A DNA stretch of 32,000 bases from Geotalea daltonii FRC-32 (lineage in GTDB: Bacteria; Desulfobacterota; Desulfuromonadia; Geobacterales; Geobacteraceae). Position 1 is the stretch's first letter, and each line of letters begins with the position of its first letter. Location: positions 3,540,001-3,572,000 of the forward strand of contig NC_011979.1 in assembly GCF_000022265.1 (NCBI RefSeq), given 5' to 3'. Positions 4,112-20,070 of this stretch are shown here, piece after piece. Position numbers and translations under genes: made by a program. Under the pieces are notes generated by a model. It had not been told where the DNA came from. It worked only from the letters and a program-made list of their open reading frames with translations, and searched no databases.

Positions 4112-5239
4112 TCACTTCAGGTAATTAATGGTGATGGCATTGGTGGAGAAGTTGACGATTTTGAAACTGCCCTTCTGGGCAATGCTGTTGGCCAGATAGA
4201 TGGTGTTTTCAGGATAAGTTACCACGAACGATCCAAGCTCCTTTTCTTCCACCCCTGCTACCCAGGCGATGTTCTGCAGTGCCTCTTTCACGGCAAAGTT
4301 TTCCCCCGGGTCTTTTATGCCGCTGACCTTGACCTGCACCCTTTTTGCTGCAGCCTTCAGATGCCTCCCGACCTTATCGGCAACCACCGGTTTAAGCTTG
4401 TCCGAAAGATTTTGCAACCCCTTGGCGGCGGCATCTTCCATTGTGCCGGCAAGCCCCTTCCCTTGCTCAGTTCCGGCAGCAAGGATTACCATCCGGCCCG
4501 ATGGGTCCCTGGTAACCAGCCTGTAGGTCAATCGGGCAGTGATGTTGTGGAAAGGGGTGTTCAGACCGAATCCCATATCCCCTCCCTTTTTTTTGGTGAG
4601 GATTAAGTCGATATTGCCGATGAGGAGAATGTTGGTGAGAAATTGGTGCATCATACTGCTCAAACTTCGGAAATTCCCGCTTTTAAGGGCAGTCTCGATA
4701 TTCCGGGGATCCACTTCACCGGTGGGAGCAACATCAACAACGGTGTATCCACGCTCGGCGAGATCGCCGATGATTTCCTCCGAAAAGAGGTTGGACTCCT
4801 GGTAATCTCCGGCCGCTCCCGAAGGTGAAATTTTCCTGGCCGGAATGAAAACGGCCACGGCATTGTTCAATGCCAGGTCGGAAAGGGCATCACGGGTCTT
4901 TGCCGGTTCCACGCACGCATTTATTTTTACTGCAACCACATTGTCTCCGATTTGATAATCGAGAAGACTAAAGGAGGTAATCAGGCCATAGATTTTTCTG
5001 TTTATCGTCTCGTCAACAAGCATCAGGTTCTGGACTACGCTCTGGGCATTGACATCTACGCCTGCAGTCTGTTCGATGGCAGCCAGTTTGGCCCGGGAGA
5101 TTGCCTCTGCTTTTGCTGAAGGTTTATCACCATTGACAATGACAGCTTCACCATCGGCATCCACACATTGGACTTGAGCCAAAACAGTCAACGGGCATAA
5201 CCACAATGAAAACATTATAAAAACTAAGATTTTCCACAT
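4112..5239 (-). CDS. Secreted FlgT-N/LPP20-like protein
   Basis: 375-aa ORF with an N-terminal signal peptide (…CPLTVLA/QVQ). It has an LPP20/FlgT-like N-terminal motif (…KAEAISRAKLAAIEQTAGVDV…). It is the first gene of the minus-strand operon and follows an AT-rich intergenic region. Confidence 0.55.
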   Translation of the reverse strand: MWKILVFIMFSLWLCPLTVLAQVQCVDADGEAVIVNGDKPSAKAEAISRAKLAAIEQTAGVDVNAQSVVQNLMLVDETINRKIYGLITSFSLLDYQIGDNVVAVKINACVEPAKTRDALSDLALNNAVAVFIPARKISPSGAAGDYQESNLFSEEIIGDLAERGYTVVDVAPTGEVDPRNIETALKSGNFRSLSSMMHQFLTNILLIGNIDLILTKKKGGDMGFGLNTPFHNITARLTYRLVTRDPSGRMVILAAGTEQGKGLAGTMEDAAAKGLQNLSDKLKPVVADKVGRHLKAAAKRVQVKVSGIKDPGENFAVKEALQNIAWVAGVEEKELGSFVVTYPENTIYLANSIAQKGSFKIVNFSTNAITINYLK

Positions 5240-5477
5240 GGCCGGAAACTCCGTATGATTGTCTAAGTAATGAATAACTACAGGAACATAAATTATTCAG
5301 ATTGAGATTCCAGGATCAGCTTTTCGCAAGGGCATTTCATAGCAGAACGCAGTCATTGGTGATTTTTGTTTCTATTTTATGTTTTTGTTTTTTCAATGCA
5401 ATGGCAATTGCCCCACCCATGAATTATATTTGTTTAACTAAACACCATTCTGATATCTTTCGATTCGCATGCAAGGC

Positions 5478-5505
5478 TTGAATTGGTGTTAAAATTTGGT
5501 AAACT
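5478..5505 (+). promoter_or_regulatory. Candidate sigma70 promoter for the sensor kinase
   Basis: TTGAAT (5478-5483), a 16-nt spacer, then TGG-TAAACT (extended -10, 5497-5505), all within an AT-rich intergenic region. Confidence 0.3.
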
Positions 5506-5558
5506 CACGCAAAATCGTGGAGATAGCGTTTATGTGATTGCAAAGCCTGGAGCCTTTC

Positions 5559-8024
5559 GTGATAGACACTGCAGTTTCTTGTGAGCAGTTAAAGAAATAC
5601 CACCTTGTGCTGTTGCTCATGATGGTTATTGCCATTGCCGCACCTTCATTTGCAGCAGATCCAGGCCCATCCCTTCAGCGATCTATCCGCGTCGTCATGG
5701 ACGACAACTACCCCCCTTTCGTTTTCAGAGACAGGGATGGCAGGATCAAGGGCATCATCATCGATCAGTGGCGCCTCTGGGAGAAGAAAACCAGTACTCG
5801 GGCCGAGATCAGCGCCATGGACTGGGCCGATGCCCAAAGGCTGATGGCCGATGGCGAATTCGACGTCATTGACACCATGTTCCGCAACGAAAAAAGGGAC
5901 AAGCTCTACGACTTTACCAAGCCCTATGCCAGCATTCCGGTTCCCATTTTCTTTCGTTCCGATATCTCCGGAATAAGAGACATCCAGGATCTTGCCGGTT
6001 TTGCCGTGGGAGTGAAGGCGGGGGGCAACATCATCGATGTGCTCAGGTCCCACGGCATCAACAACCTCATCCAGTTCAACAGTTACGAGGCGATTGTCAC
6101 CGCCGCCCGCGACCACAAGGTTAACGTCTTCACCGTCGATGAACCGCCCGCCTATTACTATCTTTATAAATTCGGCATCTGGGAACAATACCGGGCGACA
6201 AAACCCCTGTACATCGGGCAGTTTCATCGGGGGGTAAAAAAGGGAAACAAAGAGCTGCTTCAAACCGTTCAATTTGGTTTCAATCGCATATCAAAGGAAG
6301 AATACTCGGAAATAGAAGAGCGCTGGCGCGGTAAACCGATTCTGGGAATGAAAGAAATGCGCTTCATCAGAATCAGCGGCATTGCGGTCATGCTGGTTAT
6401 GCTGGCGCTCGTCCTGTGGCTGTGGATGCTGAAGCGCATGGTAAGGCAGCGAACCGATGCCCTGCAGAAGGAAGTACAAACCCGTATCGGCCATGAAACG
6501 ATGTTGCGGCACAGCGAAGAGAGCCTCCGCTCGCTCATGGATGCCATGCCGGTGGGACTGGCTCTCAGTGACAGCCAGGGCAACAATATTTACATCAATA
6601 AATGCTTCATCGAGCGTTTCGGCTATAGTCTTGGCGAAATTACCACCAAAGCAGCCTGGTATGCCCGTGCCTACCCGGACGAAACCTACAGGGAAAAGAT
6701 AGTCAACACCTGGAAGGCGGCAGTTGCCAAGGCGCAGAGTGAACAGATAGGGATTCCCCCGTTTGAGTCACTGATTACCTGCAAGGATGGCTCTGTCAGC
6801 CACAATATTGCCAATACCCAATTGATTCAGGACCGCATCCTGATTATCTACACCGATATCACCGAACGGGAAAAAAGCCGCGACGAGCTTCTCAAGATGC
6901 AGAAGCTGGAATCACTGGGAATATTGGCAGGAGGCATCGCCCATGACTTCAACAATGTCCTCACCGGCATCATGGGCAACATTTCACTGTCACGGATGCT
7001 CCTCGATGAATCGCACCGGGCGACGACAACCCTGAAATCTGCGGAAAAGGCCTGTCAAAGGGCCAGCGAACTGGCCATCCAACTGCTGACTTTCTCAAAG
7101 GGAAGCCACCCGGTAAAGAAAACCGTCTCCGCCGGCAATATCGCCAAGGCATCGGCCTCGCGGGTATCAGACGGTTTCAGTGTGATCAGCGTCTTCAATA
7201 TCCCTGAAAATCTCCATCCCGTGGAGGTGGATGAGGGCCAGATAGGACAGGCCTTCAGCAATATAGCGATCAACGCAGCACAGGCAATGCCGGAAGGCGG
7301 GACCTTTACCGTAAGGGCGGAGAATGTGGCCCTGGACAAGGCAAACAGCATGTCCTTGCCAGCGGGGGATTACGTCAGATTCACCTTTTCCGACACCGGA
7401 TGCGGCATTCCCGAAGAGGATCTGAAGAAGGTTTTCGATCCATATTTTACCACCAGGGCAGGAGGCAGTGGCCTTGGCCTGGCTGCAGCCCATTCCATCA
7501 TCGGCAAGCATGGCGGACATATCGGTGTCAGTTCGGTAGTTGGCAAGGGAACGGTTTTCCAGGTCTTGTTGCCGGCAAGCAGTAATGAATCACCAGCCCA
7601 TGAAGAGGAGGGGAAAATGCCGGCAGCGCCGGAAAAGTGCAACAACTCCTTGTTGATCATGGACGACGAAGAAATGATCAGAGACCTTGCTACAGAGTTG
7701 CTGGGGGCGTTGGGATACAAGGTAAGCACTGCCGCGGACGGCAAAGAGGCAGTTGCCATGTACAGGGATGCACAGGAATCGGGCAGGCCATATTCCGCCG
7801 TCATCATGGACCTTACCGTGCCTGGAGGCATGGGTGGAAAAGAGGCAGCCCGGCTGATACTGGATGCATATCCCGATGCCAGGCTCATCGTCTCAAGCGG
7901 CTATTCCGAAGATCCGGTCATGGCGGAATACGCCAGGTTCGGCTTCTGCGCCGCCATGGTTAAACCTTACCGCGCCGTAGATGTCATGGGGGTTCTCGAT
8001 AAAGTGCTTTCTTCCAGGGATTGA
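5559..8024 (+). CDS. Hybrid sensor histidine kinase (periplasmic SBP_bac_3 domain, TM, PAS, HisKA, HATPase_c, receiver)
   Basis: ORF 5538..8024 begins at a TTG. The in-frame GTG at 5559 has a GGAG 6 nt upstream and yields a proper signal peptide (…KKYHLVLLLMMVIAIAAPSFA/ADP). Recognisable elements: a type-3 solute-binding domain; a TM helix (ISGIAVMLVMLALVLWLWML); a PAS domain; an H-box (GGIAHDFNN); G-boxes (DTGCGI, GGSGLGL); and a C-terminal receiver (LLIMDDEE…VIMDLTVPG…KP). Confidence 0.9.
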   Translation: MIDTAVSCEQLKKYHLVLLLMMVIAIAAPSFAADPGPSLQRSIRVVMDDNYPPFVFRDRDGRIKGIIIDQWRLWEKKTSTRAEISAMDWADAQRLMADGEFDVIDTMFRNEKRDKLYDFTKPYASIPVPIFFRSDISGIRDIQDLAGFAVGVKAGGNIIDVLRSHGINNLIQFNSYEAIVTAARDHKVNVFTVDEPPAYYYLYKFGIWEQYRATKPLYIGQFHRGVKKGNKELLQTVQFGFNRISKEEYSEIEERWRGKPILGMKEMRFIRISGIAVMLVMLALVLWLWMLKRMVRQRTDALQKEVQTRIGHETMLRHSEESLRSLMDAMPVGLALSDSQGNNIYINKCFIERFGYSLGEITTKAAWYARAYPDETYREKIVNTWKAAVAKAQSEQIGIPPFESLITCKDGSVSHNIANTQLIQDRILIIYTDITEREKSRDELLKMQKLESLGILAGGIAHDFNNVLTGIMGNISLSRMLLDESHRATTTLKSAEKACQRASELAIQLLTFSKGSHPVKKTVSAGNIAKASASRVSDGFSVISVFNIPENLHPVEVDEGQIGQAFSNIAINAAQAMPEGGTFTVRAENVALDKANSMSLPAGDYVRFTFSDTGCGIPEEDLKKVFDPYFTTRAGGSGLGLAAAHSIIGKHGGHIGVSSVVGKGTVFQVLLPASSNESPAHEEEGKMPAAPEKCNNSLLIMDDEEMIRDLATELLGALGYKVSTAADGKEAVAMYRDAQESGRPYSAVIMDLTVPGGMGGKEAARLILDAYPDARLIVSSGYSEDPVMAEYARFGFCAAMVKPYRAVDVMGVLDKVLSSRD

Positions 8025-8043: not shown

Positions 8044-9294
8044 TTAACGCCACACTCCACGGGTATCTATCACCACCTTCTCCTTGAGAAGTTCCTTGTC
8101 TATGGTTTTAAATTCATCGTGGTCGACCAGAACCACCAGGATGTCCGCCTCGCGCAGCACCTGGGACAGCTCATGCAGCTCCATGCCCGCCGATCCATTG
8201 CATACATTGGGTTCACAGGCCATCACCCTGCCCACTCCGCTTGAAATGAGCCCTCTGGTAATTTCCATTGCCGGCGACTCGCGCAGATCGTCGATATTGG
8301 CCTTGAAGGACAGTCCCAGGCAGCCGATAACCGGTTCCTTGAACCGCTCCGCCTTGGCCTTTATCTTGTTCATGACCCAGTGGGGCTTGTGATCGTTCAC
8401 CTCCCGGGCGGTACGAATCAGCCGCGCCTCTTCCGGCGCAGCGGAAACCACGAACCACGGATCGACGGCAATGCAGTGCCCACCCACCCCCGGTCCGGGA
8501 TTGAGAATATTTACACGGGGATGGCGGTTAGCCAGCTCGATCACATCCCAGACATTGACCCCCACCCGGTCGCTGATCAGCGACAGCTCGTTGGCAAAGG
8601 CAATATTCACGTCCCGAAAGGAATTTTCCACCAGCTTGGACATCTCCGCCGTCTTGCTGTCGGTGAGGAATATTGTCCCGTTGCAGAAGGTGTTGTATAA
8701 ATCTCTGGCCTTTTCGGCCGAAGCCTTGTTAATGCCGCCGATGATCCGGTCATTGTCCACCAGTTCGCGGATTATGTGCCCCGGCAGCACCCTTTCCGGG
8801 CAATGGGCGATGAAGACCTGGGGGGAATGGTTGTTGGTACCCGGATGCTGCGCCAGGTCCGGCCGCAGCTGCTTGACTATCTCACCGATCGCCTCGGTGG
8901 TCCCCACCGGCGACGTGGATTCCAGAATGATGAGACTTCCTTCCCGAAGAAAAGGCGCAATGGCCCGCGTAGCGGCATCCACGTAACTCACATCCGGGAT
9001 CTTCAGATGGGCCTGTTCCCCGTTTTTGAATGGAGTAGGCACGGCGATAATGAAGGTATCCGCCTCCTCGGGGACCAACGATGCCCGGAGATTGCCGCTG
9101 TTGACGGCAGAACGGACCAGGATGTCCAGATCGGGCTCGACAATGTGTATCCTGCCCGAATTGATGGTGTTGACCGCCTCCTCGTTTATGTCCACCCCCA
9201 CCACCTCATGCCCCTTTGTGGCGAGCATGGAAGCAGTGGGCAAGCCAATGTAGCCAAGACCCATGACGACAATTTTCTGACGGTTCTTTTGCAT
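8044..9294 (-). CDS. wecC: UDP-N-acetyl-D-mannosamine dehydrogenase
   Basis: Near-colinear similarity to E. coli WecC as I remember it (IVVMGLGYIGLPTA…, INSGRIHIVEPDL, ESTSPVGTTE, CPERVLPG, AEMSKLVENSFRDVNIAFANEL, NRHPRVNILNPGPGVGGHCIAVDPWF, LIRTAREVNDHKP, DDLRESPA). The ATG at 9294 is preferred over the GTG at 9300. Confidence 0.9.
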   Translation of the reverse strand: MQKNRQKIVVMGLGYIGLPTASMLATKGHEVVGVDINEEAVNTINSGRIHIVEPDLDILVRSAVNSGNLRASLVPEEADTFIIAVPTPFKNGEQAHLKIPDVSYVDAATRAIAPFLREGSLIILESTSPVGTTEAIGEIVKQLRPDLAQHPGTNNHSPQVFIAHCPERVLPGHIIRELVDNDRIIGGINKASAEKARDLYNTFCNGTIFLTDSKTAEMSKLVENSFRDVNIAFANELSLISDRVGVNVWDVIELANRHPRVNILNPGPGVGGHCIAVDPWFVVSAAPEEARLIRTAREVNDHKPHWVMNKIKAKAERFKEPVIGCLGLSFKANIDDLRESPAMEITRGLISSGVGRVMACEPNVCNGSAGMELHELSQVLREADILVVLVDHDEFKTIDKELLKEKVVIDTRGVWR

Positions 9295-9451
9295 AGGCAC
9301 CCCATATTTAATTGGAAGTATCTAACAAAAGTTACCACCAGATCATTCATTGTAAAGTTATAACTTTTAAAACATCTTCTCGCTTCGTTCAACGTGGCAG
9401 CGCCTCATTGGGCTCTGGAGTTTATCGGAAAGATTCTGTTCATCAATAGGC

Positions 9452-9481
9452 TTGACCATAAGGTTTTAATTAGATTATATT
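9452..9481 (+). promoter_or_regulatory. Candidate sigma70 promoter reading into the cassette array
   Basis: TTGACC (9452-9457), an 18-nt spacer, then TATATT (9476-9481). It lies upstream of the first cassette ORF. Confidence 0.3.
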
Positions 9482-9620
9482 TTACCGACATTCACTTCTC
9501 AGTGCTGGTCAGGGGGCCTTCTGGCGAAGCAACATATGTATTTAGATGCTTTTATATACAACCATATGCACCCACTCTAACTGGTCAATGTGTAGTTGAA
9601 TCAGAAAAAGGAAAAACAGC

Positions 9621-10145
9621 ATGGGAAACGCGGAAAAAATACCAAAAAACATCCAAGTAATCACTGCTGACGGAAGTTTGCGAATTCACTACACGTGGCT
9701 AACCATTTACACCATTAGATTTCTTCTTGCTGCGATGGTCTGGGACGGTTTTCTGCTGTGGTTTTTAGTTGCCCAAGTAGCAGACTCAAGGAATCCGACA
9801 TTTCATCCAGTACTTGTTGCCCTTGGAGTTACCGGAGTGCTCATTACGTATGTGGCACTTGCACATGTCGTAAACACAACTGAAATCCGAGTTAATAAAC
9901 ATGACTTGGAGACAAAGGTTGGTCCGTTCCCATGGCCAGGAAATAGTATGTTCCGGGTCGATAGCATTTTGAAATTAGAATCAGGAAGAGGTACAGGGCG
10001 GCTAATGCCGAGGTGGTCCGCAAACGTGAGTGTAAATGATAGGTGCGGCGAGAAGAAAATGCTGATTACAAACCTTGCCCGAGCGGATCAAGCAGAATAC
10101 ATCGTTGCAATGATTTCGGAATTCCTCAGGGAATCAAGAGCATGA
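9621..10145 (+). CDS. Cassette ORF 1: two-TM membrane protein of unknown function
   Basis: AAAGGAAAAA lies upstream of the ATG. Two hydrophobic helices are present (IRFLLAAMVWDGFLLWFLVA and VLVALGVTGVLITYVALA), followed by a soluble C-terminal domain. Codon usage is AT-rich, unlike the flanks. Confidence 0.55.
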   Translation: MGNAEKIPKNIQVITADGSLRIHYTWLTIYTIRFLLAAMVWDGFLLWFLVAQVADSRNPTFHPVLVALGVTGVLITYVALAHVVNTTEIRVNKHDLETKVGPFPWPGNSMFRVDSILKLESGRGTGRLMPRWSANVSVNDRCGEKKMLITNLARADQAEYIVAMISEFLRESRA

Positions 10146-10147
10146 AG

Positions 10148-10203
10148 ATTCAAGCAGGAAGATGCACCGATCTGACAGCCAGTGATCTCCCGGCCCGTTG
10201 TAT
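10148..10203 (+). repeat. attC-like site 1 (degenerate outer core)
   Basis: The outer 7-mers ATTCAAG and GTTGTAT pair at 5 of 7 positions; the left core reads AAG, not AAC. The inner stem 10157-10167 / 10182-10190 has 9 bp, with two bulged bases (A10160, G10164) in the 5' arm. Confidence 0.4.
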
Positions 10204-10218
10204 GAAATGGAGAACAAA

Positions 10219-10452
10219 ATGAATATACTACGAGTGCTGTCAGGTGTTGCCTTTGTTTGCCTTGGAGTAATTGTAATCAAATTTGGCGACAAAGATGTCA
10301 CAAAGAGAAGTAACGAAAGAGGAGTAATTACAAGAGTTTTCTCCCATACCCACCTAAATCCAAAACTTCTTAAATTGCAGAGGTCAGTAATCAAATGGGG
10401 TTTCGGCCTCGTTGCGCTCTGGTTTGGGCTTTGGCTGATAGTCGATTTATAG
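10219..10452 (+). CDS. Cassette ORF 2: small two-TM membrane protein
   Basis: Track ORF 10198..10452. The ATG at 10219 is preceded by GGAGAA at a 5-nt spacing. Two hydrophobic helices are present (VLSGVAFVCLGVIVI and WGFGLVALWFGLWLIV). Confidence 0.45.
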   Translation: MNILRVLSGVAFVCLGVIVIKFGDKDVTKRSNERGVITRVFSHTHLNPKLLKLQRSVIKWGFGLVALWFGLWLIVDL

Positions 10453-10507
10453 GCGAAAAAAAGCAGGAGTAGGCATAAGAGGCGGAAAACAGAATTTAAC
10501 CGAAAGA

Positions 10508-10547
10508 GGGAATTTGACAGAGGGAATTTGACAGGGGAATTTGACAG
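10508..10547. repeat. Three tandem copies of GGGAATTTGACAG abutting hairpin copy 1
   Basis: Copies at 10508-10520, 10522-10534 and 10535-10547. The last copy runs directly into the hairpin arm. Confidence 0.9.
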
Positions 10548-10618
10548 TGTCAGGTCTACACCTTGACAGAAAAGGATTAAATTAGTGTCAAGGTGTAGAC
10601 CTGACACATATTCTTCCT
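10546..10618. repeat. 73-bp repeat, copy 1: perfect 22-bp-stem hairpin
   Basis: GTGTCAGGTCTACACCTTGACA (10547-10568), a 17-nt loop GAAAAGGATTAAATTAG, then TGTCAAGGTGTAGACCTGACAC (10586-10607), followed by ATATTCTTCCT. It is 100% identical to 13683-13755. It is bounded by ATTTAAC (10494-10500) and GTTAGCA (10619-10625). Confidence 0.95.
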
Positions 10619-10675
10619 GTTAGCATCTGAAAACCAGCGCATATGAAGTAATCCATCTCCAGCCAAGAGAATGAC

Positions 10676-11677
10676 ATGAAACTACCCTCAAGAATTAAGC
10701 AGCATAAAGCCGAGTCAGATTCCTACGCCATTTTGCTGTACAAGTTGAAAAACGTCGGCATTTTCAGAAACTTAACAGAAAATGATTATGGGATTGATTT
10801 TGAGATTGAGGTCCTTAAGGGAGATCAACTAACCGGAAGATATGTCAAAGTACAAGTAAAATCATCAGAAGATTTAAAGATAAGAAAAAAAGACAAGGTG
10901 CCAACAGTAGGAGGGATAAAGGATACAACTCTCAATTATTGGGCTGAGCTAAGCTTAAGGGTCAATGTTCTAGCGTATGCAGTTGATTTAAAAAATGAGA
11001 ATATATACATCACCAAGCCCATGTTTTGGCAAGCAACCAAACTCATAGACGGATCAAAGAGAAGCAAATCAATCGAATTTCTTCCTGTGGACCAATATCA
11101 CTCAGAGGTCGCTGGCGCATTAACATATGCATTTGCACTTGCTCCTACCGCATCTGACATTATTCACAATCACAAAGTAGCATTAAAGCACCTTATGGAG
11201 TTCATAGAGTTTTACGTAGGCACTTTCCATTATGATATCCATCTACCAACAGATGAACCCGACGTCTTTCGATCATTCCTGGATGTATGCCGGATACTAA
11301 TGTGGGACATGAGATATGACAAGTCTGCCGAACTCTCAGAAGAGGAGCAAAAATGCTTACTTAGATACGAGTATTGGGCCAAGCAGGGAAACCTCATTTA
11401 TGACGAAATTCCTCATTATGTTCTACAGAAGCCTATGAAGTTTTTAATGCCTCTCTTTATCAAGTCGGTAAAACGTTACAACACAAGGGTTTTAGATGCC
11501 AGATACTACTGGTTATATAATGACTGTAATTACCTTCGGCTTGTATATGAATGTGTAATGCCTGAAGATCTTGATTCCCATGAAGGAATTATGAGATGGG
11601 GGTATGATCTTCGTATTAACGGCATCAAAAAACCAGCTGACTTTTACATGTTTCTAGCTGAAACTAAGAAATGCTAA
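10676..11677 (+). CDS. Cassette ORF 3: DUF4365 (PD-(D/E)xK restriction-endonuclease-like) domain protein with an uncharacterised helical C-terminal domain
   Basis: The N-terminus (…ESDSYAILLYKLKNVGIFRNLTENDYGIDFEIEV…GRYVKVQVKSS…) matches my memory of the DUF4365 signature (D-x-G-I-D … E … Q-V-K-S). The coding sequence is very AT-rich. Confidence 0.65.
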   Translation: MKLPSRIKQHKAESDSYAILLYKLKNVGIFRNLTENDYGIDFEIEVLKGDQLTGRYVKVQVKSSEDLKIRKKDKVPTVGGIKDTTLNYWAELSLRVNVLAYAVDLKNENIYITKPMFWQATKLIDGSKRSKSIEFLPVDQYHSEVAGALTYAFALAPTASDIIHNHKVALKHLMEFIEFYVGTFHYDIHLPTDEPDVFRSFLDVCRILMWDMRYDKSAELSEEEQKCLLRYEYWAKQGNLIYDEIPHYVLQKPMKFLMPLFIKSVKRYNTRVLDARYYWLYNDCNYLRLVYECVMPEDLDSHEGIMRWGYDLRINGIKKPADFYMFLAETKKC

Positions 11678-11736
11678 CAATCGGCGGCAGACGGTCTTCG
11701 CTGACGTTCCGCCGCTGCGCCGAAGCCCCGTTGGCA
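11672..11736 (+). repeat. attC-like site 3
   Basis: TGCTAAC (11672-11678) overlaps the TAA stop and pairs 6/7 with GTTGGCA (11730-11736). The inner stem 11681-11694 / 11712-11723 has 12 bp, with bulged G11687 and A11691 in the 5' arm. The loop is 17 nt. The site is GC-rich against AT-rich ORFs. Confidence 0.6.
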
Positions 11737-11747
11737 CAGGAGAAATA

Positions 11748-12512
11748 ATGTCAGATCTGAATTCAAATATTACCAATCGTATCTCTCAGCTACTTGGCGC
11801 TCTTTTTATATTATTGGCAGTGTCAGCACTGATAGCTGCACTAAATGAAGGTGTATGGCATGAGTTGGGCATGAGCCTTGTCGGCGGCCTTATAGTGTTA
11901 TTTATAGCAGTGTTTATAGCTGACCAACTGATGCAGAAATATAACGAAGAAAAATTCAATCCTCACCGAGATTATGTTTTTGCGATAGTTCAGAAGGCAA
12001 TAACGGAGTGTTATTTACGAGTTATTCCCCCAATGAAAAAATCAGAGTTACATCATGCAGAATTTGGTAAGTATTCCTCGGGTTATTATGATTTGCCAAG
12101 TTTAAATGGCACGTACAGAGAGCATATTCAGGAAACTCTTCGAATCTCGTCCCAAAACCTTGACGGCTTCGTCAAAGCTGTTGATATTTCCCGAGCCTCT
12201 TTGGATGTGTTTTTTGAAAAAACAAAGGAAATTAGTCACCACTTTTTTACAATATTAGACCCAGAATTACTCGAATATTTATTGCGTCTAGAAGATGCCC
12301 ATAACGAATTAGATATAGCTGTTATGGACTCCGGCATTAGCTTAGATACAAAGGTATCACTGTATTCGTTTTCTTTTATGAACACATTAATTGAAATGCA
12401 TAAGCTCCAACAACTACTCTTGTCCAGGGCCACAAAACGCTTAACAATGGAAGAATGGAAAAGAGATATTAGTGCTAAAGTGGACAGGTATACAGCATTG
12501 TGTGGGAAATAG
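11748..12512 (+). CDS. Cassette ORF 4: two-TM protein with a cytoplasmic helical domain, function unknown
   Basis: A strong AGGAGA lies 5 nt upstream of the ATG. TM helices are LLGALFILLAVSALIAAL and LVGGLIVLFIAVFIA. Confidence 0.55.
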   Translation: MSDLNSNITNRISQLLGALFILLAVSALIAALNEGVWHELGMSLVGGLIVLFIAVFIADQLMQKYNEEKFNPHRDYVFAIVQKAITECYLRVIPPMKKSELHHAEFGKYSSGYYDLPSLNGTYREHIQETLRISSQNLDGFVKAVDISRASLDVFFEKTKEISHHFFTILDPELLEYLLRLEDAHNELDIAVMDSGISLDTKVSLYSFSFMNTLIEMHKLQQLLLSRATKRLTMEEWKRDISAKVDRYTALCGK

Positions 12513-12514
12513 TG

Positions 12515-12607
12515 GGGCAACGCGAAAATGATGTGCCAACAGGCCCTAGGACACCGACCAGGGTTGAAAATCGCCCCAGTGCGGGTCAAGGGCGCAACCC
12601 GTTGTGC
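12515..12607 (+). repeat. GC-rich structured spacer; possible long or degenerate attC
   Basis: GGGCAAC (12515-12521) pairs partly with GTTGTGC (12601-12607). I could not find a canonical bulged stem. It contains several short GC hairpins and an internal CAAC…GTTG pair (12537-12566). Confidence 0.25.
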
Positions 12608-12620
12608 GAAGGGAACTTTA

Positions 12621-13058
12621 ATGCGTAAGAAAGTTAGAAAAGAATTGGATGACAAGTCTCGGCAGTGCAGAGAAGCGAGCACTTCAACAATATTAAAGCC
12701 TACGGTCGTCGTCGAAACGACCGATGCTTACGAATTTACTGCTGCAATTAAGTTGCTGGAAAAAGAAGGAATACCATTTTGTACAGAGAAAGAGTACACG
12801 GACGATCTTGTTGAAGGCAGGAGCTTTCTTGGTCCGTATGCATGGAAGATAATTGTTGAGGACGAGCTGCGGCAGAAGGCAACCAGATTAATAGACGAAG
12901 GTGGAGTTAGCGTAGTCATTGACGCTCCAGATGAAGGTGACGAAACCACGATTGAACGAGGGTTGGGAAAAAAAGATACTTCATATTGGATTGCAATCTT
13001 TTACTGCGGTCTAGGTTTGCTATCGCTTGGAATGCTTCTGAAAAATCTCTTTGACTGA
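12621..13058 (+). CDS. Cassette ORF 5: small tail-anchored protein with a DUF2007-like domain
   Basis: Track ORF 12528..13058. The first 31 codons lie in the GC-rich spacer, so the ATG at 12621 (AAGGGA upstream) is preferred. …TTDAYEFTAAIKLLEKEGIPFCTE… resembles DUF2007. A C-terminal TM helix is present (YWIAIFYCGLGLLSLGMLL). Confidence 0.45.
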   Translation: MRKKVRKELDDKSRQCREASTSTILKPTVVVETTDAYEFTAAIKLLEKEGIPFCTEKEYTDDLVEGRSFLGPYAWKIIVEDELRQKATRLIDEGGVSVVIDAPDEGDETTIERGLGKKDTSYWIAIFYCGLGLLSLGMLLKNLFD

Positions 13059-13067
13059 AATCCGAAA

Positions 13068-13127
13068 GCACAACCAGGCGGCGGCACACAGACGCTAACG
13101 CGTTGGTGCGCCCCCGAACCGTTATGC
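13068..13127 (+). repeat. attC-like site 5
   Basis: GCACAAC (13068-13074) pairs 6/7 with GTTATGC (13121-13127). The inner stem 13077-13095 / 13100-13115 has 15 bp plus one mismatch. Bulged G13084, A13088 and G13091 are all in the 5' arm. The loop is a TAAC tetraloop. Total length is 60 bp. Confidence 0.6.
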
Positions 13128-13157
13128 CGCCCAAAAAGACAGAAAGGCGAAAAAAAC

Positions 13158-13550
13158 ATGTGGTACCAGTTCTGCGAAAACCCACGCTCGATCACAGAGA
13201 TCTTTGGTAATGAACCTGTAGGCAATCCGGTTGAAATACACAGCGTCCGACTTCATCAAGATGGTCCATTGATTCAGCTTCAAATCGAACTGCCGACGTT
13301 CCCGGAGAAACAACAACCACGATGGCCTATTGGTGCAAACACACTTCAGGTTGAACTCGATCTCTGGGGAGTAACCAGCTTTGAGCAGGTTGGCTGGGGA
13401 ACGAGCAATATAGGAGTGCTGAGTCTTGAAAGAGAGGATGCTCTCAAATTCACATTTGTATCTAACCATTCAAAGTTCAGTGGAAGCTGCATTGTGGCTC
13501 GTATTGGCAAGGTGAGTGCTTATATCAACGGTAGTAAAGAGAAGGTATAA
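13158..13550 (+). CDS. Cassette ORF 6: Imm50-like immunity protein (orphan)
   Basis: The pattern …VEIHSVRLHQDGPLIQLQIELPTFPEKQQPRWPIGANTLQVELDLWGVTSFEQVGW…ARIGKVSAYING resembles the all-beta Imm50 family of polymorphic-toxin immunity proteins (recalled, not searched). Confidence 0.5.
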   Translation: MWYQFCENPRSITEIFGNEPVGNPVEIHSVRLHQDGPLIQLQIELPTFPEKQQPRWPIGANTLQVELDLWGVTSFEQVGWGTSNIGVLSLEREDALKFTFVSNHSKFSGSCIVARIGKVSAYINGSKEKV

Positions 13551-13612
13551 CATCGACGCAGACTCTGACGCGGCGAACAACGCCGCGCAGGTCACGCCGC
13601 GACACGTTGGTC
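13545..13612 (+). repeat. attC-like site 6
   Basis: GTATAAC (13545-13551) overlaps the TAA stop. The right core is GTTGGTC (13606-13612). The inner stem 13561-13575 / 13581-13593 has 13 bp, with bulged T13564 and A13568 in the 5' arm. The loop is AACAA. Confidence 0.5.
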
Positions 13613-13623
13613 GGGCTCTGAGC

Positions 13624-13689
13624 CAAATTTGGTAGTGTCACAAATTTGGTAGCAAATTTGGTAGTGTCATAGCAAATTTGGTAGTGTCA
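13624..13689. repeat. Tandem CAAATTTGGTAG(TGTCA) units abutting hairpin copy 2
   Basis: Units at 13624-13640, 13641-13652 (truncated), 13653-13669 and 13673-13689. Each full unit contains the outermost 6 nt (GTGTCA) of the hairpin's left arm. Confidence 0.9.
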
Positions 13690-13755
13690 GGTCTACACCT
13701 TGACAGAAAAGGATTAAATTAGTGTCAAGGTGTAGACCTGACACATATTCTTCCT
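13683..13755. repeat. 73-bp repeat, copy 2: perfect 22-bp-stem hairpin
   Basis: Identical to 10546-10618, with arms at 13684-13705 and 13723-13744. Both copies have the same loop orientation, so they form a direct repeat 3137 bp apart. Confidence 0.95.
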
Positions 13756-13800
13756 CCTGACACATATTCTTCCTCCCATATTCTTCCTCCATATTCTTAC
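13739..13800. repeat. Telescoping tandem duplications of the right hairpin junction
   Basis: TGACACATATTCTTCCTCC occurs twice (13739-13757 and 13758-13776). It is followed by the truncated CATATTCTTCCTCC (13777-13790) and then ATATTCTTAC (13791-13800). Confidence 0.9.
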
Positions 13801-13857
13801 TCAGAAATATTCATCCATCTTGTCGCATGTCAAGGCAGCCCCCTTAGAACTTATTTC

Positions 13858-16002
13858 CTACACCATTAGGCATTGTCTGAATTGTTTTTCCCGTACCTTT
13901 TCCTGAACCGTAGCCGTGCCGTTTATGTACCTGGAATAGACCGCTAGCGCCCAGACCGGGAAGAACAGGCTGTAACCGTGGTAGCGCAAGTAGAATACCC
14001 GCGGGAAACCGGTGCCGGTAAATTGCTTCTCGTTCCAGCCGTTGCAGTAGCTTTCCGTCAAATATCGTACACCGTTCCTGACGGCGCTGTGACGCCACTC
14101 ACCGGCCGCCATCAGCGCCATCAGCGCCCATGATGTCTGTGAGGCGGTGCTGGCGCCGCTTCCGGCCAGGGATGGATCATCATAGCTCGCGCAGGTTTCC
14201 CCCCAGCCGCCGTCGCTGTTCTGGCAGGAGATCAGCCACTCCACCGCTTTTCTCACATACGGGGCATCCATGTTCTCACCGGCCTGGTGCAACCCGGAAA
14301 GTACCGACCAGGTGCCATAGATGTAATTGACACCCCATCGTCCGAACCAGCCGCCAAACGGCTCCTGCTCCTTCTTCAAATAGGCGATGCCGCGGGCAAT
14401 CGGTGGGTAATCAGGGCCGTGCCCCAGCATCCCCATCATCTCTATACATCTGCCGGTCAGATCGGCGGTGCTGGGATCCAGCAAGGCCCCGTGGTCGGCA
14501 AAGGGGATATCGTTCAGGTAGAAATAGTCGTTATCCACATCAAAGGCCCCCCAACCGCCGTCCGTGCTTTGCATCCCCTGCACCCACCTGATCGCCCGTT
14601 CAATCTTTTCACGATATTCCGGTTTTTCCAGCGCCCCGGCACGGAACAGGCTCATCAGTACTTTTGCTGTATCATCCACATCGGGATAGCGGCTGTTTTC
14701 GTACTGGAAGGCCCACCCTCCCGACTCCAGCCCCGGACATTTCTCCGACCAGTCTCCCGGTGTGGCAATCTGCTGGCTGAACAGCCATTTGATGGCCCTG
14801 TCCGTTACTCCCGAGTTGTTTTCGGCATAACCTGACTCACACAGGGCCGACAGACTCATGCAGGTGTCCCAGATGGGGGAGTTGCAGGGCTGACAGAAAC
14901 TGAACTCCGTGTTGCCGGCTGTATCGGTCAGGTAGGTTGGAGATAGTTCAGGCGCTGCTGAAGAGTTGTCTATGGCAATGCCGCCACTGTCATCATCCAT
15001 GGGGATGGTGCCTGTCTTCAGATTGCGGTGCACCATCAGGTTATCGACCGCCTCCAGGCCGCGCAAATAATCGGCATCGTCATCGCTGCACCCCAGCGTC
15101 TTCAGGGCCATGACTGCATTGGCCATAGCCGGGTAGATGGCGCCAATGCCGCCGTCTCCCTGCATTCTGGCCCGTGTCCAGCGTTCAGCCTCGGCCAGGG
15201 CATGTTGTTTGATCCGGCCGGGGACCAGGTGCATGGTGCGTTTCAGCACCCGGTCCAGGGCGATGAAGACGTTTTTGCGCCAGGCATGGTGACGGAACTT
15301 ATCCAGATGGACCAGCATGTCCGGCGGAGTGGTGAACAACTCGGTGATCCCCTCGTTGTATTGCAGACGGCAGATCGGTTGTGTAGCGTAAAGGATAAGT
15401 AGCGGCACAATTACAGTCCGTGACCAGTAGGCTACCTTGTTCAGGTGAAAGAAAAACCAGCGCGGCAGCAGCATGATCTCGATCGGCATGGCCGGTGCGG
15501 TATGCCACGGGATCTGACCGAAGGTAGCCAGGGTGATGCGGGTGAATACGTTGCACTTGGCCGCCCCGCCGAGGGAGAGAATCAGCTGGCGCGCCCTGAC
15601 CATATGGGGAGCGTTCTTGTCGTGCCCCAGCAGCTTGAGGGCAAAATAGGCCTTAACGCTGGCACTGATATTGACATTGCCGTCAACGGCATACAGCGGC
15701 CAGCCGCCGTCAGGCAGCTGGCGCTCCTGCATGTAGGCGGCCAGCCGCTCGGAAATCTCCGGATCGATCTCACGGCCGATAAAGCGCTGCAGCATCACGT
15801 ACTCCGCAGGGATGGTCACATCCGCCTCCAGGTCAAAGACCCAGTGTCCGTCGTCCTGCTGCTGCCCGGCCAGCTGTGAAGCAGCCACACTGGTCACTTT
15901 TTCCAGATCGGCAGCGTCCATGATGGCGCAGGTTTCGCTCCCCCTGGCTTGGGTGGTTTTGCCCCCCTCGATCACACTGAAAGTACCTTTATGCTTATTC
16001 AT
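13858..16002 (-). CDS. shc: Squalene-hopene cyclase
   Basis: Contains the DVDDTA catalytic motif (codons at about 14665-14682), repeated QW-type motifs (…DGGW…) and CQPCNSPIWDT. The ATG at 16002 (MNKHKG…) has a GGAGG 5-6 nt upstream, so it is preferred over the ORF-track start at 16023. Confidence 0.92.
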   Translation of the reverse strand: MNKHKGTFSVIEGGKTTQARGSETCAIMDAADLEKVTSVAASQLAGQQQDDGHWVFDLEADVTIPAEYVMLQRFIGREIDPEISERLAAYMQERQLPDGGWPLYAVDGNVNISASVKAYFALKLLGHDKNAPHMVRARQLILSLGGAAKCNVFTRITLATFGQIPWHTAPAMPIEIMLLPRWFFFHLNKVAYWSRTVIVPLLILYATQPICRLQYNEGITELFTTPPDMLVHLDKFRHHAWRKNVFIALDRVLKRTMHLVPGRIKQHALAEAERWTRARMQGDGGIGAIYPAMANAVMALKTLGCSDDDADYLRGLEAVDNLMVHRNLKTGTIPMDDDSGGIAIDNSSAAPELSPTYLTDTAGNTEFSFCQPCNSPIWDTCMSLSALCESGYAENNSGVTDRAIKWLFSQQIATPGDWSEKCPGLESGGWAFQYENSRYPDVDDTAKVLMSLFRAGALEKPEYREKIERAIRWVQGMQSTDGGWGAFDVDNDYFYLNDIPFADHGALLDPSTADLTGRCIEMMGMLGHGPDYPPIARGIAYLKKEQEPFGGWFGRWGVNYIYGTWSVLSGLHQAGENMDAPYVRKAVEWLISCQNSDGGWGETCASYDDPSLAGSGASTASQTSWALMALMAAGEWRHSAVRNGVRYLTESYCNGWNEKQFTGTGFPRVFYLRYHGYSLFFPVWALAVYSRYINGTATVQEKVREKQFRQCLMV

Positions 16003-16032
16003 GTTTTTCCTCCATAACGCCAAACATTTACA

Positions 16033-19492: not shown

Positions 19493-20047
19493 ATGAAGAA
19501 TGTAAAACGTATGGTTTTTACCGCTGCAGCGTTGATTGCTCTATCGGGATTTGCTTTCAGCGCAAGTACCAGCGGTAGCAGTATGGGCAGCTCTTCCGGT
19601 TCAGACAGTTCATCCGGCATGACCGGCAGCGGTTCTGGCGGATCGACAACCGGTTCTTACGGCAGTGACACCGGCAGCGGCATGGGTGGCTCGACCGGTG
19701 GGTCGACAAGTGATACATACGGTACTGGTTCGGGCACAGGTGGCTCCACTAGTGACACTTATGGGACCGGCACCGGTGGTTCGACCAGTGATACTTATGA
19801 CACCGGTACTGGCGGAGCAACTGGCGGCACATTTGGAACGTATACCGGCGCAGGCACAGGTGGTTCCACTGGCGGCACTTATGGATCGGATACGGAAATG
19901 GGGACCGGCGGCTCCATGGGTGGCACCTATGGCACAGGCACCGGCGGAAGAAGTAGCGACATGGAGAAAGGGAAATCCGGTCACATGGGAACCATGGGTT
20001 CATACACCAGTTCGAGCCGCGGACACATGGGTACCAAAGGCTACTGA
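19493..20047 (+). CDS. Secreted Gly/Ser/Thr/Tyr-rich tandem-repeat protein
   Basis: A strong RBS (AGAGGAGGAA) precedes the start. The signal peptide is MKNVKRMVFTAAALIALSGFAFS/AS. Repeats of the form GGSTSDTYGTG(S/T)G span about aa 46-152. A terminator lies immediately downstream. Confidence 0.75.
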   Translation: MKNVKRMVFTAAALIALSGFAFSASTSGSSMGSSSGSDSSSGMTGSGSGGSTTGSYGSDTGSGMGGSTGGSTSDTYGTGSGTGGSTSDTYGTGTGGSTSDTYDTGTGGATGGTFGTYTGAGTGGSTGGTYGSDTEMGTGGSMGGTYGTGTGGRSSDMEKGKSGHMGTMGSYTSSSRGHMGTKGY

Positions 20048-20070
20048 TTTTCTACACGGATCCACATGAA

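Follow-up and report, generated by a model that had tools for sequence, protein, structure and literature searches.

Cassette block and paired hairpins at the locus

The analyzed window, a stretch of 32,000 nucleotides of Geotalea daltonii FRC-32 (NC_011979.1, positions 3,540,001 to 3,572,000), contains a block of four ORFs, each followed by an attC-like site, which is bracketed by two copies of a hairpin sequence with tandem repeats (stutters) at their ends. The GC content of the block was 41-47% versus approximately 56% in the flanks. No integrase gene was present in the window, and the block was therefore considered a CALIN-like array. The features were as follows:

10508..10547, no strand assigned: left-end stutter of copy 1, GGGAATTTGACAG x3 (10508-10520, 10522-10534, 10535-10547; TRF period 14, 3.1 copies, and direct reading)
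10535..10620, + strand: copy 1, 86-bp non-autonomous TIR dimer with left tip, left arm 10547-10568, loop 10569-10585, right arm 10586-10607 and right tip CATATTCTTCCT(G) (repeat search and folding; bounds by homology with the independent insertion L070)
10619..13612, + strand: block of four ORFs, each followed by an attC-like site
10676-11677: ORF, DUF4365; attC-like site ~11672-11736
11748-12512: ORF; attC-like site ~12515-12607
12528-13058: ORF; attC-like site ~13068-13127
13158-13550: ORF, Imm50; attC-like site ~13545-13612
13624..13683, no strand assigned: left-end stutter of copy 2, CAAATTTGGTAG x4, with or without TGTCA (TRF, repeat search and direct reading)
13672..13755, + strand: copy 2, TIR dimer with left arm 13684-13705, loop 13706-13722, right arm 13723-13744 and right tip CATATTCTTCCT (repeat search, folding and tip comparison with copy 1)
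13739..13802, no strand assigned: right-end stutter of copy 2, TGACAC+ATATTCTTCCTCC (= TGACACATATTCTTCCTCC) x2, followed by the truncated units CATATTCTTCCTC and ATATTCTTACTC (TRF period 19 x 2.1 and period 13 x 2.9)

The repeat search of the window confirmed two identical 73-bp perfect hairpins in direct orientation, as proposed in the original prediction: the sequences 10546-10618 and 13683-13755 matched exactly at a spacing of 3137 bp and belonged to a direct repeat of 81 nt with 98% identity (10538-10618 versus 13675-13755). In both copies, the 22-nt arms were 100% complementary and formed a perfect stem with a 17-nt loop. Folding of the dimers as single-stranded DNA yielded -25 to -41 kcal/mol (z = -7 to -10), and none of the 200 shuffled sequences folded equally well. 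With up to three mismatches allowed, the arm was detected in only four places in the window, namely, the arms of both copies (expected number 0). Beyond the right arm, the two copies had exactly 12 nt in common and then diverged, while comparison of copy 1 (10535-10620) with L070 (1998-2083) revealed a common stretch of exactly 86 bp with 97.7% identity. At the core of each 86-bp non-autonomous dimer lies a 73-bp hairpin; the dimer consists of two TIRs and lacks the transposase gene.

A decayed third copy, previously suggested at 9451-9473 (+ strand), was not accepted. When aligned with the end of the arm and the loop, this sequence agreed at 19 of 24 positions (one gap), a level that was reached by none of 20 shuffles and by two unrelated matches in 789 kb of related DNA; the likeness was restricted to the loop region, no arm was found on either side, and the sequence overlaps a promoter-like TTGACC-N18-TATATT.

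The arm family and its transposase in related genomes

The 21-22-nt arm TGTCAAGGTGTAGACCTGACAC was found in approximately 95 loci of Geobacteraceae and Desulfuromonadales genomes and metagenomes (82 from the metagenome scan and 13 from the genome scan, both with the arm as query), a sample that is biased toward intact arms by retrieval with the exact arm pattern. Thus, the arm family is widespread in these taxa, where it occurs as solo arms, short inverted dimers with loops of 5-25 nt, clusters, and complete units of approximately 1.06 kb. In six loci, two arms separated by about 1 kb enclosed a 314-aa ORF. The geometry of the complete units was constant, with one arm located approximately 60-80 nt upstream of the transposase ATG and the TAG stop codon lying within the other arm. 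Complete units and dimers occupied differing genomic contexts, in both orientations relative to neighboring genes. Sequences L069 and L085 shared 1063 bp at 99.4% identity, the common part extending past the arms by 13 and 10 nt and lying between unrelated flanks. Comparison of independent insertions (L069/L085, L070/copy 1 and further pairs) placed the ends of the mobile unit 10-13 nt beyond each arm. No target-site duplication was found at the elements, the left and right flanks being unrelated. It was also observed that assemblies break at the element.

The 314-aa ORF matched Pfam Y1_Tnp (2.4e-15) and had a C-terminal HTH, with a score of 79.9 bits on the NCBIfam model 'REP-associated tyrosine transposase', which is just below the cut-off of 80. 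The HUH residues (H60, H62) and the motif Y119-x3-N123-P124 were invariant in 17 homologues, and the family profile matched DnaA domain IV with E = 7e-4 and TnpAREP 4ER8 with E = 0.21. Relatives are labeled 'REP element-mobilizing transposase RayT' in the source records. The full element ('TIRtron') encodes a tyrosine transposase of the HUH Y1 type that carries a DnaA-like HTH at its C terminus, which matches RAYT group 1 (TnpA-Y1 subclass 2.1). It is very likely that the hairpins of the window are gene-less miniature TIR dimers (REPIN/MITE-like) of such a TIRYT-type element, and the reading as a whole is likely. The earlier suggestions of a target or end of a hairpin-recognizing HUH/RAYT-like enzyme and of a genome-wide MITE/REP-like element were essentially right, since the arms flank a Y1 HUH transposase gene in relatives and are dispersed as solo arms, dimers and clusters. 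The repeat proved to be common, dispersed and untied to cassette boundaries, which by the reckoning of the original prediction would reduce it to an ordinary REP/MITE, but the stutter belongs to the family and not to this locus.

The transposase gene was absent from the FRC-32 window, and therefore any movement of the dimers depends on an enzyme supplied in trans. None of the 120 closest transposase homologues appeared to come from FRC-32; the strain appears to have no close homologue of the enzyme, and hence the two window copies may be orphans. FRC-32 itself was not among the genomes with loci in the genome scan for the arm.

According to a different reading, the hairpin is an unusual attC or its functional replacement, copy 1 serves as the attC of cassette 2, and the stutters are produced by the integrase. 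As had been claimed, copy 1 is preceded by ATTTAAC (10494), which resembles RYYYAAC, and followed by the GTT word GTTAGCA (10619) that opens the next cassette, and the four attC-bearing cassettes are exactly what lies between the two copies. The attC role itself was not upheld: the stem is perfect and has no extrahelical bases, only 4 of 7 positions pair between the two words, R'/R'' boxes of this kind are missing from copy 2, and the window contains no integrase. Moreover, the arms at the approximately 95 loci were retrieved irrespective of context, many of them adjoining a Y1 transposase gene, and the other stuttered loci that were read or tabulated represented ordinary intergenic DNA or flanked the transposase gene, with no cassette arrays. 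This reading is largely refuted and highly improbable. The position of the TIR dimers beside attC-like sites is probably incidental, although their placement was perhaps helped by both kinds of sites being single-strand- or hairpin-prone DNA. Looping out or mobilization of the 3.1-kb block is possible; no evidence for movement of the bracketed block was found.

Similarly, there is little probability that a transcription factor acting as a dimer uses the arm as its operator and that the dimers serve in regulation. In favor of this reading, the GntR/HutC-type dyad GTnTAnAC is matched by the core GGTGTAGACC, DasR-type sites in the literature contain GGTCTAGACC-like cores, direct reading revealed dyad symmetry of the arm with a TGTCA...TGACA inverted repeat, and all instances read in sequence were intergenic, except where an arm runs into the 3' end of the transposase gene. 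However, the arms stand at fixed positions on either side of the transposase gene and, together with their 10-13-nt tips, move into unrelated contexts, no consistent class of neighboring gene was noted, assemblies are interrupted at the element, and any dsDNA binding could be explained by the HTH of the transposase itself. A MITE of the classical DDE-transposase type, a structured RNA or a terminator would likewise be short, with terminal inverted repeats, no coding capacity and a strong hairpin, but such an identity is extremely improbable: target-site duplications are lacking and the flanks unrelated, the HUH Y1 enzyme was the sole gene type found between full-length arms, and neither an Rfam match, which also speaks against the structured RNA suggested earlier, nor a terminator-like T-run was detected in an element that occurs in both orientations.

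Comparison with known elements

TIRtrons, or TIRYT elements (Di Nocera et al. 2013, PMC3733652), correspond to TnpA-Y1 subclass 2.1 (Quentin et al. 2018, PMC6006769) and to RAYT group 1 (Bertels et al. 2017), and are characterized by TIRs with a GGGGWSAS motif, a TIR that overlaps the gene at its 3' end, and families of TIRs present as single copies (monomers), dimers or clusters (PMC3733652, PMC6006769). The element studied here shares with them the Y1 HUH core with the Y-x3-NP motif, the long protein (~314 aa) whose C-terminal HTH is similar to Bac_DnaA_C/HTH_23, inverted repeats in place of GTAG-footed REPs on both sides of the gene, one TIR overlapping the gene 3' end, and the dispersal of TIR copies as monomers, dimers and clusters. 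The start of the TIR resembles GGGGWSAS, but only 6-7 of 8 positions match. Unlike in the published elements, near-identical whole units were found in different contexts, which indicates that the complete unit is mobile, and neither the TIR family GTGTCAGGTCTACACCTTGACA nor its distribution in Geobacteraceae was found in the searched literature. The kind of element is already known and little studied, whereas the outer-end stutter is apparently undescribed: the TIRtron/TIRYT and REPIN/RAYT papers examined contain no mention of the 10-13-nt terminal spacer or of the stutter with its 12-13-nt ruler.

As in REPINs (Bertels & Rainey 2011, PMC3116915), a long hairpin arises from two short palindromic units in inverted orientation, solo units are apparent remnants, and the Y1 HUH enzyme is related; tandem clusters including flanking sequence are also known there, and the array of 85 nt x 4 at locus L008 is similar. 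TnpAREP cleaves 5' and 3' of the hairpin (PMC3333891, PMC8266576). In contrast, the GT[AG]G of canonical REPs sits at the hairpin's 5' foot, while here GTAG lies mid-arm and contains the transposase stop codon; copies appear to be few, an exact 18-mer search giving 1-3 loci per MAG, and the protein falls into the subclass with an HTH, for which REPs had not been found.

The IS200/IS605 elements (IS608, ISDra2), which move by 'peel-and-paste' single-strand transposition, also have a Y1 HUH transposase, lack target-site duplications, and are recognized at small imperfect hairpins; each arm can form the hairpin TGTCA(A)GGT-GTAG-ACCTGACA, in which one A is bulged. In IS608, cleavage occurs 19 and 10 nt outside the hairpin, a distance that would be 10-13 nt here. 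Unlike in IS200/IS605, the ends are true inverted repeats, and therefore either strand can present the hairpin, and the enzyme has an additional predicted DnaA-like dsDNA-binding domain. In MITE-bracketed integrons, or integron mobilization units, two identical miniature elements in direct orientation bracket cassettes; these MITEs are approximately 300-440 bp long, derive from DDE-type elements and have target-site duplications. The two identical, directly oriented elements around the integron cassettes of the window resemble this arrangement, but are 86 bp in size, HUH-type and without a TSD.

Stutters at the outer ends and their origin

Stutters were present at three of the four junctions of the two window copies (TRF and direct reading), in the numbers originally reported (three units, four units, and two plus truncated units). 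The last GGGAATTTGACAG unit of copy 1 is the element's own 13-nt left tip, its final G being the first base of the arm. This stutter was base-identical in contigs of two other sequencing runs and is therefore not an artefact. The CAAATTTGGTAG units to the left of copy 2 carried 0, 5 or 5+3 nt of the outer end of the arm (TGTCA / TGTCATAG), and the right-end units telescoped, with progressively less arm per unit.

Across the family, stutter was detected at 25 of 100 outer ends versus 1 of 47 inner ends and 4 of 612 random windows (Fisher p = 4e-19 and 3e-4); another count gave 20 of 100 outer flanks versus 3 of 575 controls. The unit comprised the 12-13-nt terminal spacer plus 0-19 nt of arm, and unit lengths clustered at 10-14 nt (mode 12-13).

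Palindromes are known to stimulate slipped mispairing, and the stutter of the TIRYT-family dimers could have arisen without the enzyme, by replication slippage or template switching at a very stable hairpin or cruciform. The folding energies of the dimers given above agree with such an origin, as do several junctions with 1-2 nt of microhomology, for example, CC|TGACAC, which are compatible with slippage. Nevertheless, solo arms, whose own hairpin is weak (-4.5 kcal/mol), stutter equally evidently (L004, L008, L017, L037, L049), the stutter is confined to the outer end, the unit is quantized at 12-13 nt across unrelated flanks and equals the independently mapped terminal spacer, and the L076 junctions have no microhomology; an enzyme-independent origin is thus considered unlikely.

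An enzyme-driven origin of the stutter is put forward tentatively as a serious possibility. The stuttered flanks resemble scars left about 13 nt outside each repeat. By analogy with IS608 and TnpAREP, the transposase would bind the arm and nick one strand at the tip, at a measured distance outside the arm, the stutter being a by-product of this nick; the position and strand of the nick and the role of the enzyme are inferred from the repeat pattern. Either the polymerase would jump back to the free 3' end and re-copy the terminal segment, or the enzyme would join the 3'-OH of the tip to a secondary cut within a sister copy's arm, and repeated rounds would generate the telescoping pattern. The family-wide stutter, specific to outer ends and with its ruler of 12-13 nt, agrees with the earlier suggestion that the hairpin base had been cut or had slipped and was then copied again several times. 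The same stutter was found with a diverged TIR in the finished genome of Geobacter sp. AOG2 and with another TIR family at L070.

Hairpin dimers of the cassette island

The AT-rich island at 9400–13850 of the window (41–47% GC versus about 56%) carries six small ORFs, the last four of which sit between two hairpins, copy 1 and copy 2. The stem of each hairpin is formed by an inverted repeat of 21–22 nt (TIR, hereafter the arm), and the outer flanks of the arms bear a stutter, i.e., tandem, telescoping short repeats.

Neighbours of the island, attC-like sites (AAC...GTT cores; identified from box words and folds) and stutters (periods and copy numbers from Tandem Repeats Finder)
8044–9300, minus strand: UDP-glucose dehydrogenase gene, left neighbour of the island
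10505–10547: copy-1 left stutter, period 14, 3.1 copies
about 11672–11736: attC-like site
about 12515–12607: attC-like site
about 13068–13127: attC-like site
about 13545–13612: attC-like site
13624–13689: copy-2 left stutter, periods 12, 20 and 29
13737–13776: copy-2 right stutter, first part, period 19, 2.1 copies
13763–13802: copy-2 right stutter, second part, period 13, 2.9 copies
13858–16023, minus strand: squalene-hopene cyclase gene, right neighbour of the island

The identity, stem, loop, spacing and junction stutters of the hairpins, as described in the original prediction, were borne out by direct reading, repeat search and Tandem Repeats Finder. The stretches 10546–10618 and 13683–13755 were exactly identical, lay in the same orientation at a spacing of 3137 bp, and had 22-nt arms paired over 22/22 bp and a 17-nt loop; with two mismatches, the likeness extended over 81 nt (10538–10618 versus 13675–13755). 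Single-stranded DNA folds of the copies had energies of −25 to −41 kcal/mol (z = −7 to −10), with 0 of 200 shuffles as stable. No further arm copies were found elsewhere in the 32-kb window with up to 3 mismatches allowed, the Rfam scan of the window matched no family, and the terminator scan revealed no terminator-like site. The copy-1 stutter was base-identical in same-strain contigs from two other sequencing runs and is thus not an assembly artefact, while the public same-strain contigs terminated within the hairpins, as expected of a de Bruijn assembler at a 73-bp repeat.

The ORFs between the hairpins encoded a DUF4365 protein (Geob_3230 by exact protein look-up; its 90%-identity cluster has one member), an unknown protein, a protein with a weak DUF2007 match and Imm50, and each was followed by an attC-like site. 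Neither integrase nor transposase genes were encoded across the 32-kb window; thus, the array is CALIN-like. Copy 1 occupies the expected attC position of the second ORF, and GTTAGCA abuts its right tip (the terminal spacer just outside the arm), from which it had been proposed that the hairpin might stand in for an attC site. This reading was not upheld: the stem is perfect and has no extrahelical bases, the presumed boxes ATTTAAC and GTTAGCA of copy 1 are complementary at 4/7 positions and lie 46 and 12 nt from the stem, and copy 2 has no boxes, with no GTT box downstream. Nor was there a tie to cassette boundaries: the searches that yielded about 95 other loci took no account of context, many of these loci flank a transposase gene, and the ones read lay in ordinary intergenic DNA. 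Perfect hairpins at cassette junctions need not be attC variants.

The decayed third copy suspected at 9451–9473 could not be sustained either, since it matched 19/24 positions of the arm end and loop only, had no arms and overlapped a promoter-like site, the only notable one in the promoter scan. A stretch inside the DUF4365 ORF (10759–10789, CTTAACAGAAAATGATTA...) equalled its score against the arm-end-plus-loop query, probably by chance in AT-rich DNA.

Repeat family, transposase and element boundaries

Related loci (L-numbers) were retrieved from genomes and metagenomes by arm sequence. The exact 18-mer of the arm was found at 13 loci of the species-representative genome collection, a count that omits G. 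daltonii, as the window's own four arms were not returned and the genome or region was evidently masked. Nearly all of these loci belonged to Geobacteraceae or Desulfuromonadales, including Pelotalea chapellei; the outliers were single hits in alphaproteobacterial and gammaproteobacterial MAGs and one Flavobacterium hit, which was probably due to chance. Exact or near-exact arms outside Desulfuromonadota were seen at L005 and L016 (Dongiaceae MAG) and at L002 (gammaproteobacterial MAG; the two half-sites in reversed order), pointing to either horizontal transfer of the element or contamination of the bins. A slightly degenerate 21-mer returned 82 loci from metagenomes, and no arm matches were found in viral contigs or in phage and plasmid collections. 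By exact 18-mer scan, a MAG contained 1–3 loci, with many hits at contig ends, suggesting collapsed repeats. The arm motif was absent from the lists of multicopy nucleotide sequences in the genome-paper supplements of G. metallireducens and G. bemidjiensis.

A mismatch-tolerant census revealed three architectures, namely, solo arms, about 20 short inverted dimers (loops of 5–25 nt), and arms about 1015 bp apart. Inverted doublets forming a hairpin included the window copies, L006, L012, L013, L044, L070, L073, L081 and others; tandem arm clusters were found, for example, at L008 and L053. At L008:2012–2336, an 85-nt unit composed of a solo arm and two CATATTTTTCTCCC tip units was repeated four times in tandem, forming a cluster of higher order that resembles tandem REPIN/BIME arrays.

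The units of about 1 kb enclosed an ORF of 314 aa, with six arm–ORF–arm units complete and seven more interrupted by contig ends. The catalytic motifs HUH (SNHYHLL) and Tyr (RYIHLNP; Y-x3-NP) were identified in the ORF at L085:8510–9454, and residues H60, H62, Y119, N123 and P124 were invariant across 17 sequences. The 314-aa product matched Pfam Y1_Tnp (E = 2.4e-15), had a C-terminal HTH (Sigma70_r4, 1.2e-5; HTH_23, 3e-3; Bac_DnaA_C, 3.8e-3) and scored 79.9 bits against the NCBIfam model NF047646, 'REP-associated tyrosine transposase', for which the cut-off is 80. A single-sequence PDB search with the transposase gave no match; with the 17-sequence profile, the C-terminus matched DnaA domain IV structures (E = 7e-4 to 5e-3) and the core weakly matched E. 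coli TnpAREP 4ER8 (E = 0.21). The family comprised at least 8,000 relatives at E < 1e-10, with database names such as 'REP element-mobilizing transposase RayT', Geobacter members included.

According to tblastn, homologues of the transposase (52–100% identity) adjoined arms in about 20 loci in a constant geometry, with one arm 60–80 nt upstream of the ATG and the TAG stop inside the other arm, in its central GTAG (L085:9437–9462, L100:3427–3463). Thus, the 3′ end of the gene and the recognition sequence overlap and must co-evolve. The arm could also be read as a GntR/HutC operator (GTnTAnAC), to which a low probability is assigned. In five loci (L067, L068, L071, L074 and L089), the arm adjoined only the first 41 transposase codons (78% identity), and these remnants apparently represent a stage of internal deletion between complete units and dimers lacking the gene. 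The MAG of L008 contained a second, diverged transposase (L008:4250–5880, gene at 4871–5800, 55% identity), bracketed by a different inverted repeat, GGGTCAACTCTCC... (4797–4820/5841–5864), and 82-nt tandem arrays (4565–4810); thus, several transposase–TIR pairs with separate repeats coexist in one genome. Of the at least 8,000 homologues, the best 120 included none on a 4.30-Mb contig, the size of the FRC-32 chromosome (4,304,501 bp), so that this strain may lack a close cognate enzyme; the two dimers of the window may be orphans that arrived with the island.

The boundaries of the mobile unit were determined by comparison of insertions. Loci L069 and L085 shared 1063 bp with 99.4% identity in otherwise unrelated flanks, i.e., the complete unit sits in different contexts, and the shared stretch stopped 13 nt past one arm and 10 nt past the other. 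The independent insertion L070, which has the same 17-nt loop, shared exactly 86 bp with copy 1 (10535–10620), the window copies shared a further 12 nt past the right arm and about 10 nt past the left one before diverging, and other pairs of insertions diverged 10–14 nt outside the arm. Thus, the mobile unit consists of the arms and a terminal spacer of 10–13 nt on each side. At every dimer examined, the left and right flanks beyond the tips were unrelated, which indicates the absence of target-site duplication, as HUH single-strand transposition would give.

In all oriented outer flanks, the tips were pyrimidine-rich and the first six or so bases past the arm were semi-conserved family-wide (C-Y-T-W-W-T/A), so that either the TIR is effectively longer than 22 nt or insertion is sequence-biased; a conserved nucleotide at the tip or junctions was not found by eye. 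On the reverse strand, the right flank is rich in purines and precedes GTG/ATG, which had looked like a Shine-Dalgarno sequence with a small peptide; this candidate was rejected, as the downstream 'peptides' were not conserved between loci and the pyrimidine-rich stretch belongs to the tip of the element itself.

Among known systems, TIRtrons are tyrosine-transposase genes with flanking terminal inverted repeats, which often share GGGGWSAS and sometimes overlap the 3′ end of the gene, and in some genomes, TIR families occur as monomers, dimers or clusters (Di Nocera et al. 2013, PMC3733652). The TnpA-Y1 subclass 2.1, present in about 15% of strains, comprises long proteins with a C-terminal Bac_DnaA_C/HTH_23/HTH_28-like domain, has no association with canonical GTAG-footed REPs, and is regarded as the same as RAYT group 1 of Bertels et al.; it probably also corresponds to the TIR-associated tyrosine transposases (TIRYTs) (Quentin et al. 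2018, PMC6006769). The present family resembles TIRtrons in the Y1 gene placed between inverted repeats, the HUH and Y-x3-NP motifs, the C-terminal HTH and the dispersed monomers, dimers and clusters. Its outer end, (A/G)GTGTCAG, agreed with GGGGWSAS at 6–7 of 8 positions, with GGGTCAGG as the counterpart in relatives from Geobacter sp. AOG2 and from a Geobacter MAG. Canonical REPs have GT[AG]G at the 5′ foot of the hairpin, whereas here GTAG is central, in the loop of the arm's own weak hairpin (8 bp, bulged A, −4.5 kcal/mol), and the arms are preceded on their 5′ side by variable bases (GTAG, ACAG, AGAG, TGGG, GAAG). The inverted doublets forming a hairpin are REPIN-like in form but are not canonical REPINs. 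Classical IS200/IS605 elements likewise lack target-site duplication, but they have distinct LE and RE hairpins on one strand, whereas the ends here are 21–22-nt inverted repeats. The absence of target-site duplication and the HUH Y1 parent enzyme do not fit a DDE-type MITE.

Since all TIRtron features except the full GGGGWSAS were seen and the GTAG foot was absent, the hairpins were classed as TIR dimers of a TIRYT family. The window finding is thus largely explained as two non-autonomous TIR dimers of a TIRYT/RAYT-group-1 element within an integrase-less cassette array, i.e., an odd feature of a model subsurface Geobacter genome derives from a large, experimentally untouched transposase subclass. 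This kind of element is already known, and the TIR family is a new member of it; neither this TIR sequence nor TIRYTs in Geobacter were mentioned in the literature searched.

Stutter at the outer ends of the arms

A strict two-copy tandem repeat within 60 nt was found in 20 of about 100 non-redundant outer flanks versus 3 of 575 windows taken as controls within these loci. The seed-recurrence test was positive for 25/100 outer ends, 1/47 inner ends of solo arms and 4/612 random windows (Fisher p = 4e-19 and 3e-4 for the excess at outer ends), and the lone positive 'inner' end was the outer flank of a neighbouring, different TIR. The repeated flank unit was 10–14 nt long (mode 12–13) irrespective of its sequence (e.g., CCGGTGGGCGTG, CTAATACTGTC, CATATTCTTCCTC), whereas the portion of the arm carried by the units varied from 0 to 19 nt of its outer end, most commonly 0 or 4–7 nt. 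Thus, the outer boundary of every unit coincides with the independently mapped tip.

Cleavage in IS608 occurs 19 and 10 nt outside its hairpins. TnpAREP cleaves 5′ and 3′ of REPs (PMC8266576). By analogy with both, in the simplest reading, the TIRYT would bind the arm and nick one strand at the tip. A polymerase on the nicked strand could then enter the protein- or hairpin-blocked arm to a variable depth and return to the free 3′ end left by the nick, whereupon the spacer would be re-copied; alternatively, the enzyme could join the 3′-OH of the tip to a 5′-phosphotyrosyl end from a secondary site in the arm of a sister copy. Either route would yield an exact outer boundary, a variable inner boundary, polarity toward the outer end and telescoping after several rounds. 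As a third sub-alternative, self-targeted insertion beside an existing tip might occur repeatedly and be followed by partial deletion.

The main rival is purely hairpin-induced slippage, which is considered unlikely: it would leave unexplained the stutter at solo arms, the 12–13-nt ruler and the junctions free of microhomology. Solo arms (L004, L008, L017, L037, L049) and dimers showed the stutter, as did complete units at both of their ends (L059, L076), and the L076 junctions TCTA|GACA and TCTA|CTGACA had no microhomology. The tentative reading drawn from these sequence patterns, which may be correct, is that the stutter represents a direct in vivo footprint of the TIRYT, i.e., of a nick at a protein-measured 12–13 nt outside the TIR and repeated cycles of nicking and re-copying or rejoining, and hence a distinct, enzyme-driven form of tandem duplication. 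In the literature searched, no description of an outer-end stutter with a 12–13-nt ruler and no biochemistry of HTH-bearing Y1 transposases were found.

The stutter was also detected in other TIR families. At a distance of 150 bp from the L070 dimer, a different family (GGTGTCAGGCTTGCAA...TTGCAAGCCTGGCACC, L070:1700–1880) had a left flank with a telescoping stutter of AGGAAATCG units and variable TIR lengths, and the TIRtron of the finished Geobacter sp. AOG2 genome had duplications at both ends, of GAGAAACTAATAA together with GGGTCAG on the left and of TTTTTGGTA on the right. A single locus represented by L010 and L088 on the one hand and by L036, L043, L048 and related sequences on the other was polymorphic between samples for a 10-nt insertion, ATTCTCCGTT, immediately after the 13-nt tip CCTAATCCTCTCC, i.e., at the predicted cleavage point.

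The transposase subclass was reported without recognisable REP-like partners, whereas here the partner, the boundaries (10–13 nt past the TIR) and a mutational scar are readable from sequence; the boundaries and the scar together predict a specific cleavage position for an uncharacterised transposase subclass. The stutter could also serve as a marker of active or recently active TIRtrons in other genomes.

Direct repeats around the cassette block

Direct repeats can come to flank a cassette block that has no integrase, and they provide substrates for deletion or, conceivably, for mobilisation. Recombination between the 81-bp direct repeats could plausibly, in principle, excise the 3.1-kb block, as envisaged in the original prediction. 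Taken together, the two outermost arms (left of copy 1, right of copy 2) have the end configuration of a complete TIRtron and might be acted on by a transposase provided in trans; that the 3.2-kb unit with its four integron cassettes is a cargo element mobilisable in this way is highly improbable. An additional 36-nt tandem repeat in the window (19733–19806; 2.1 copies, 81% matches), located in a region of overlapping ORFs (19493–20069), was unrelated to the hairpins.
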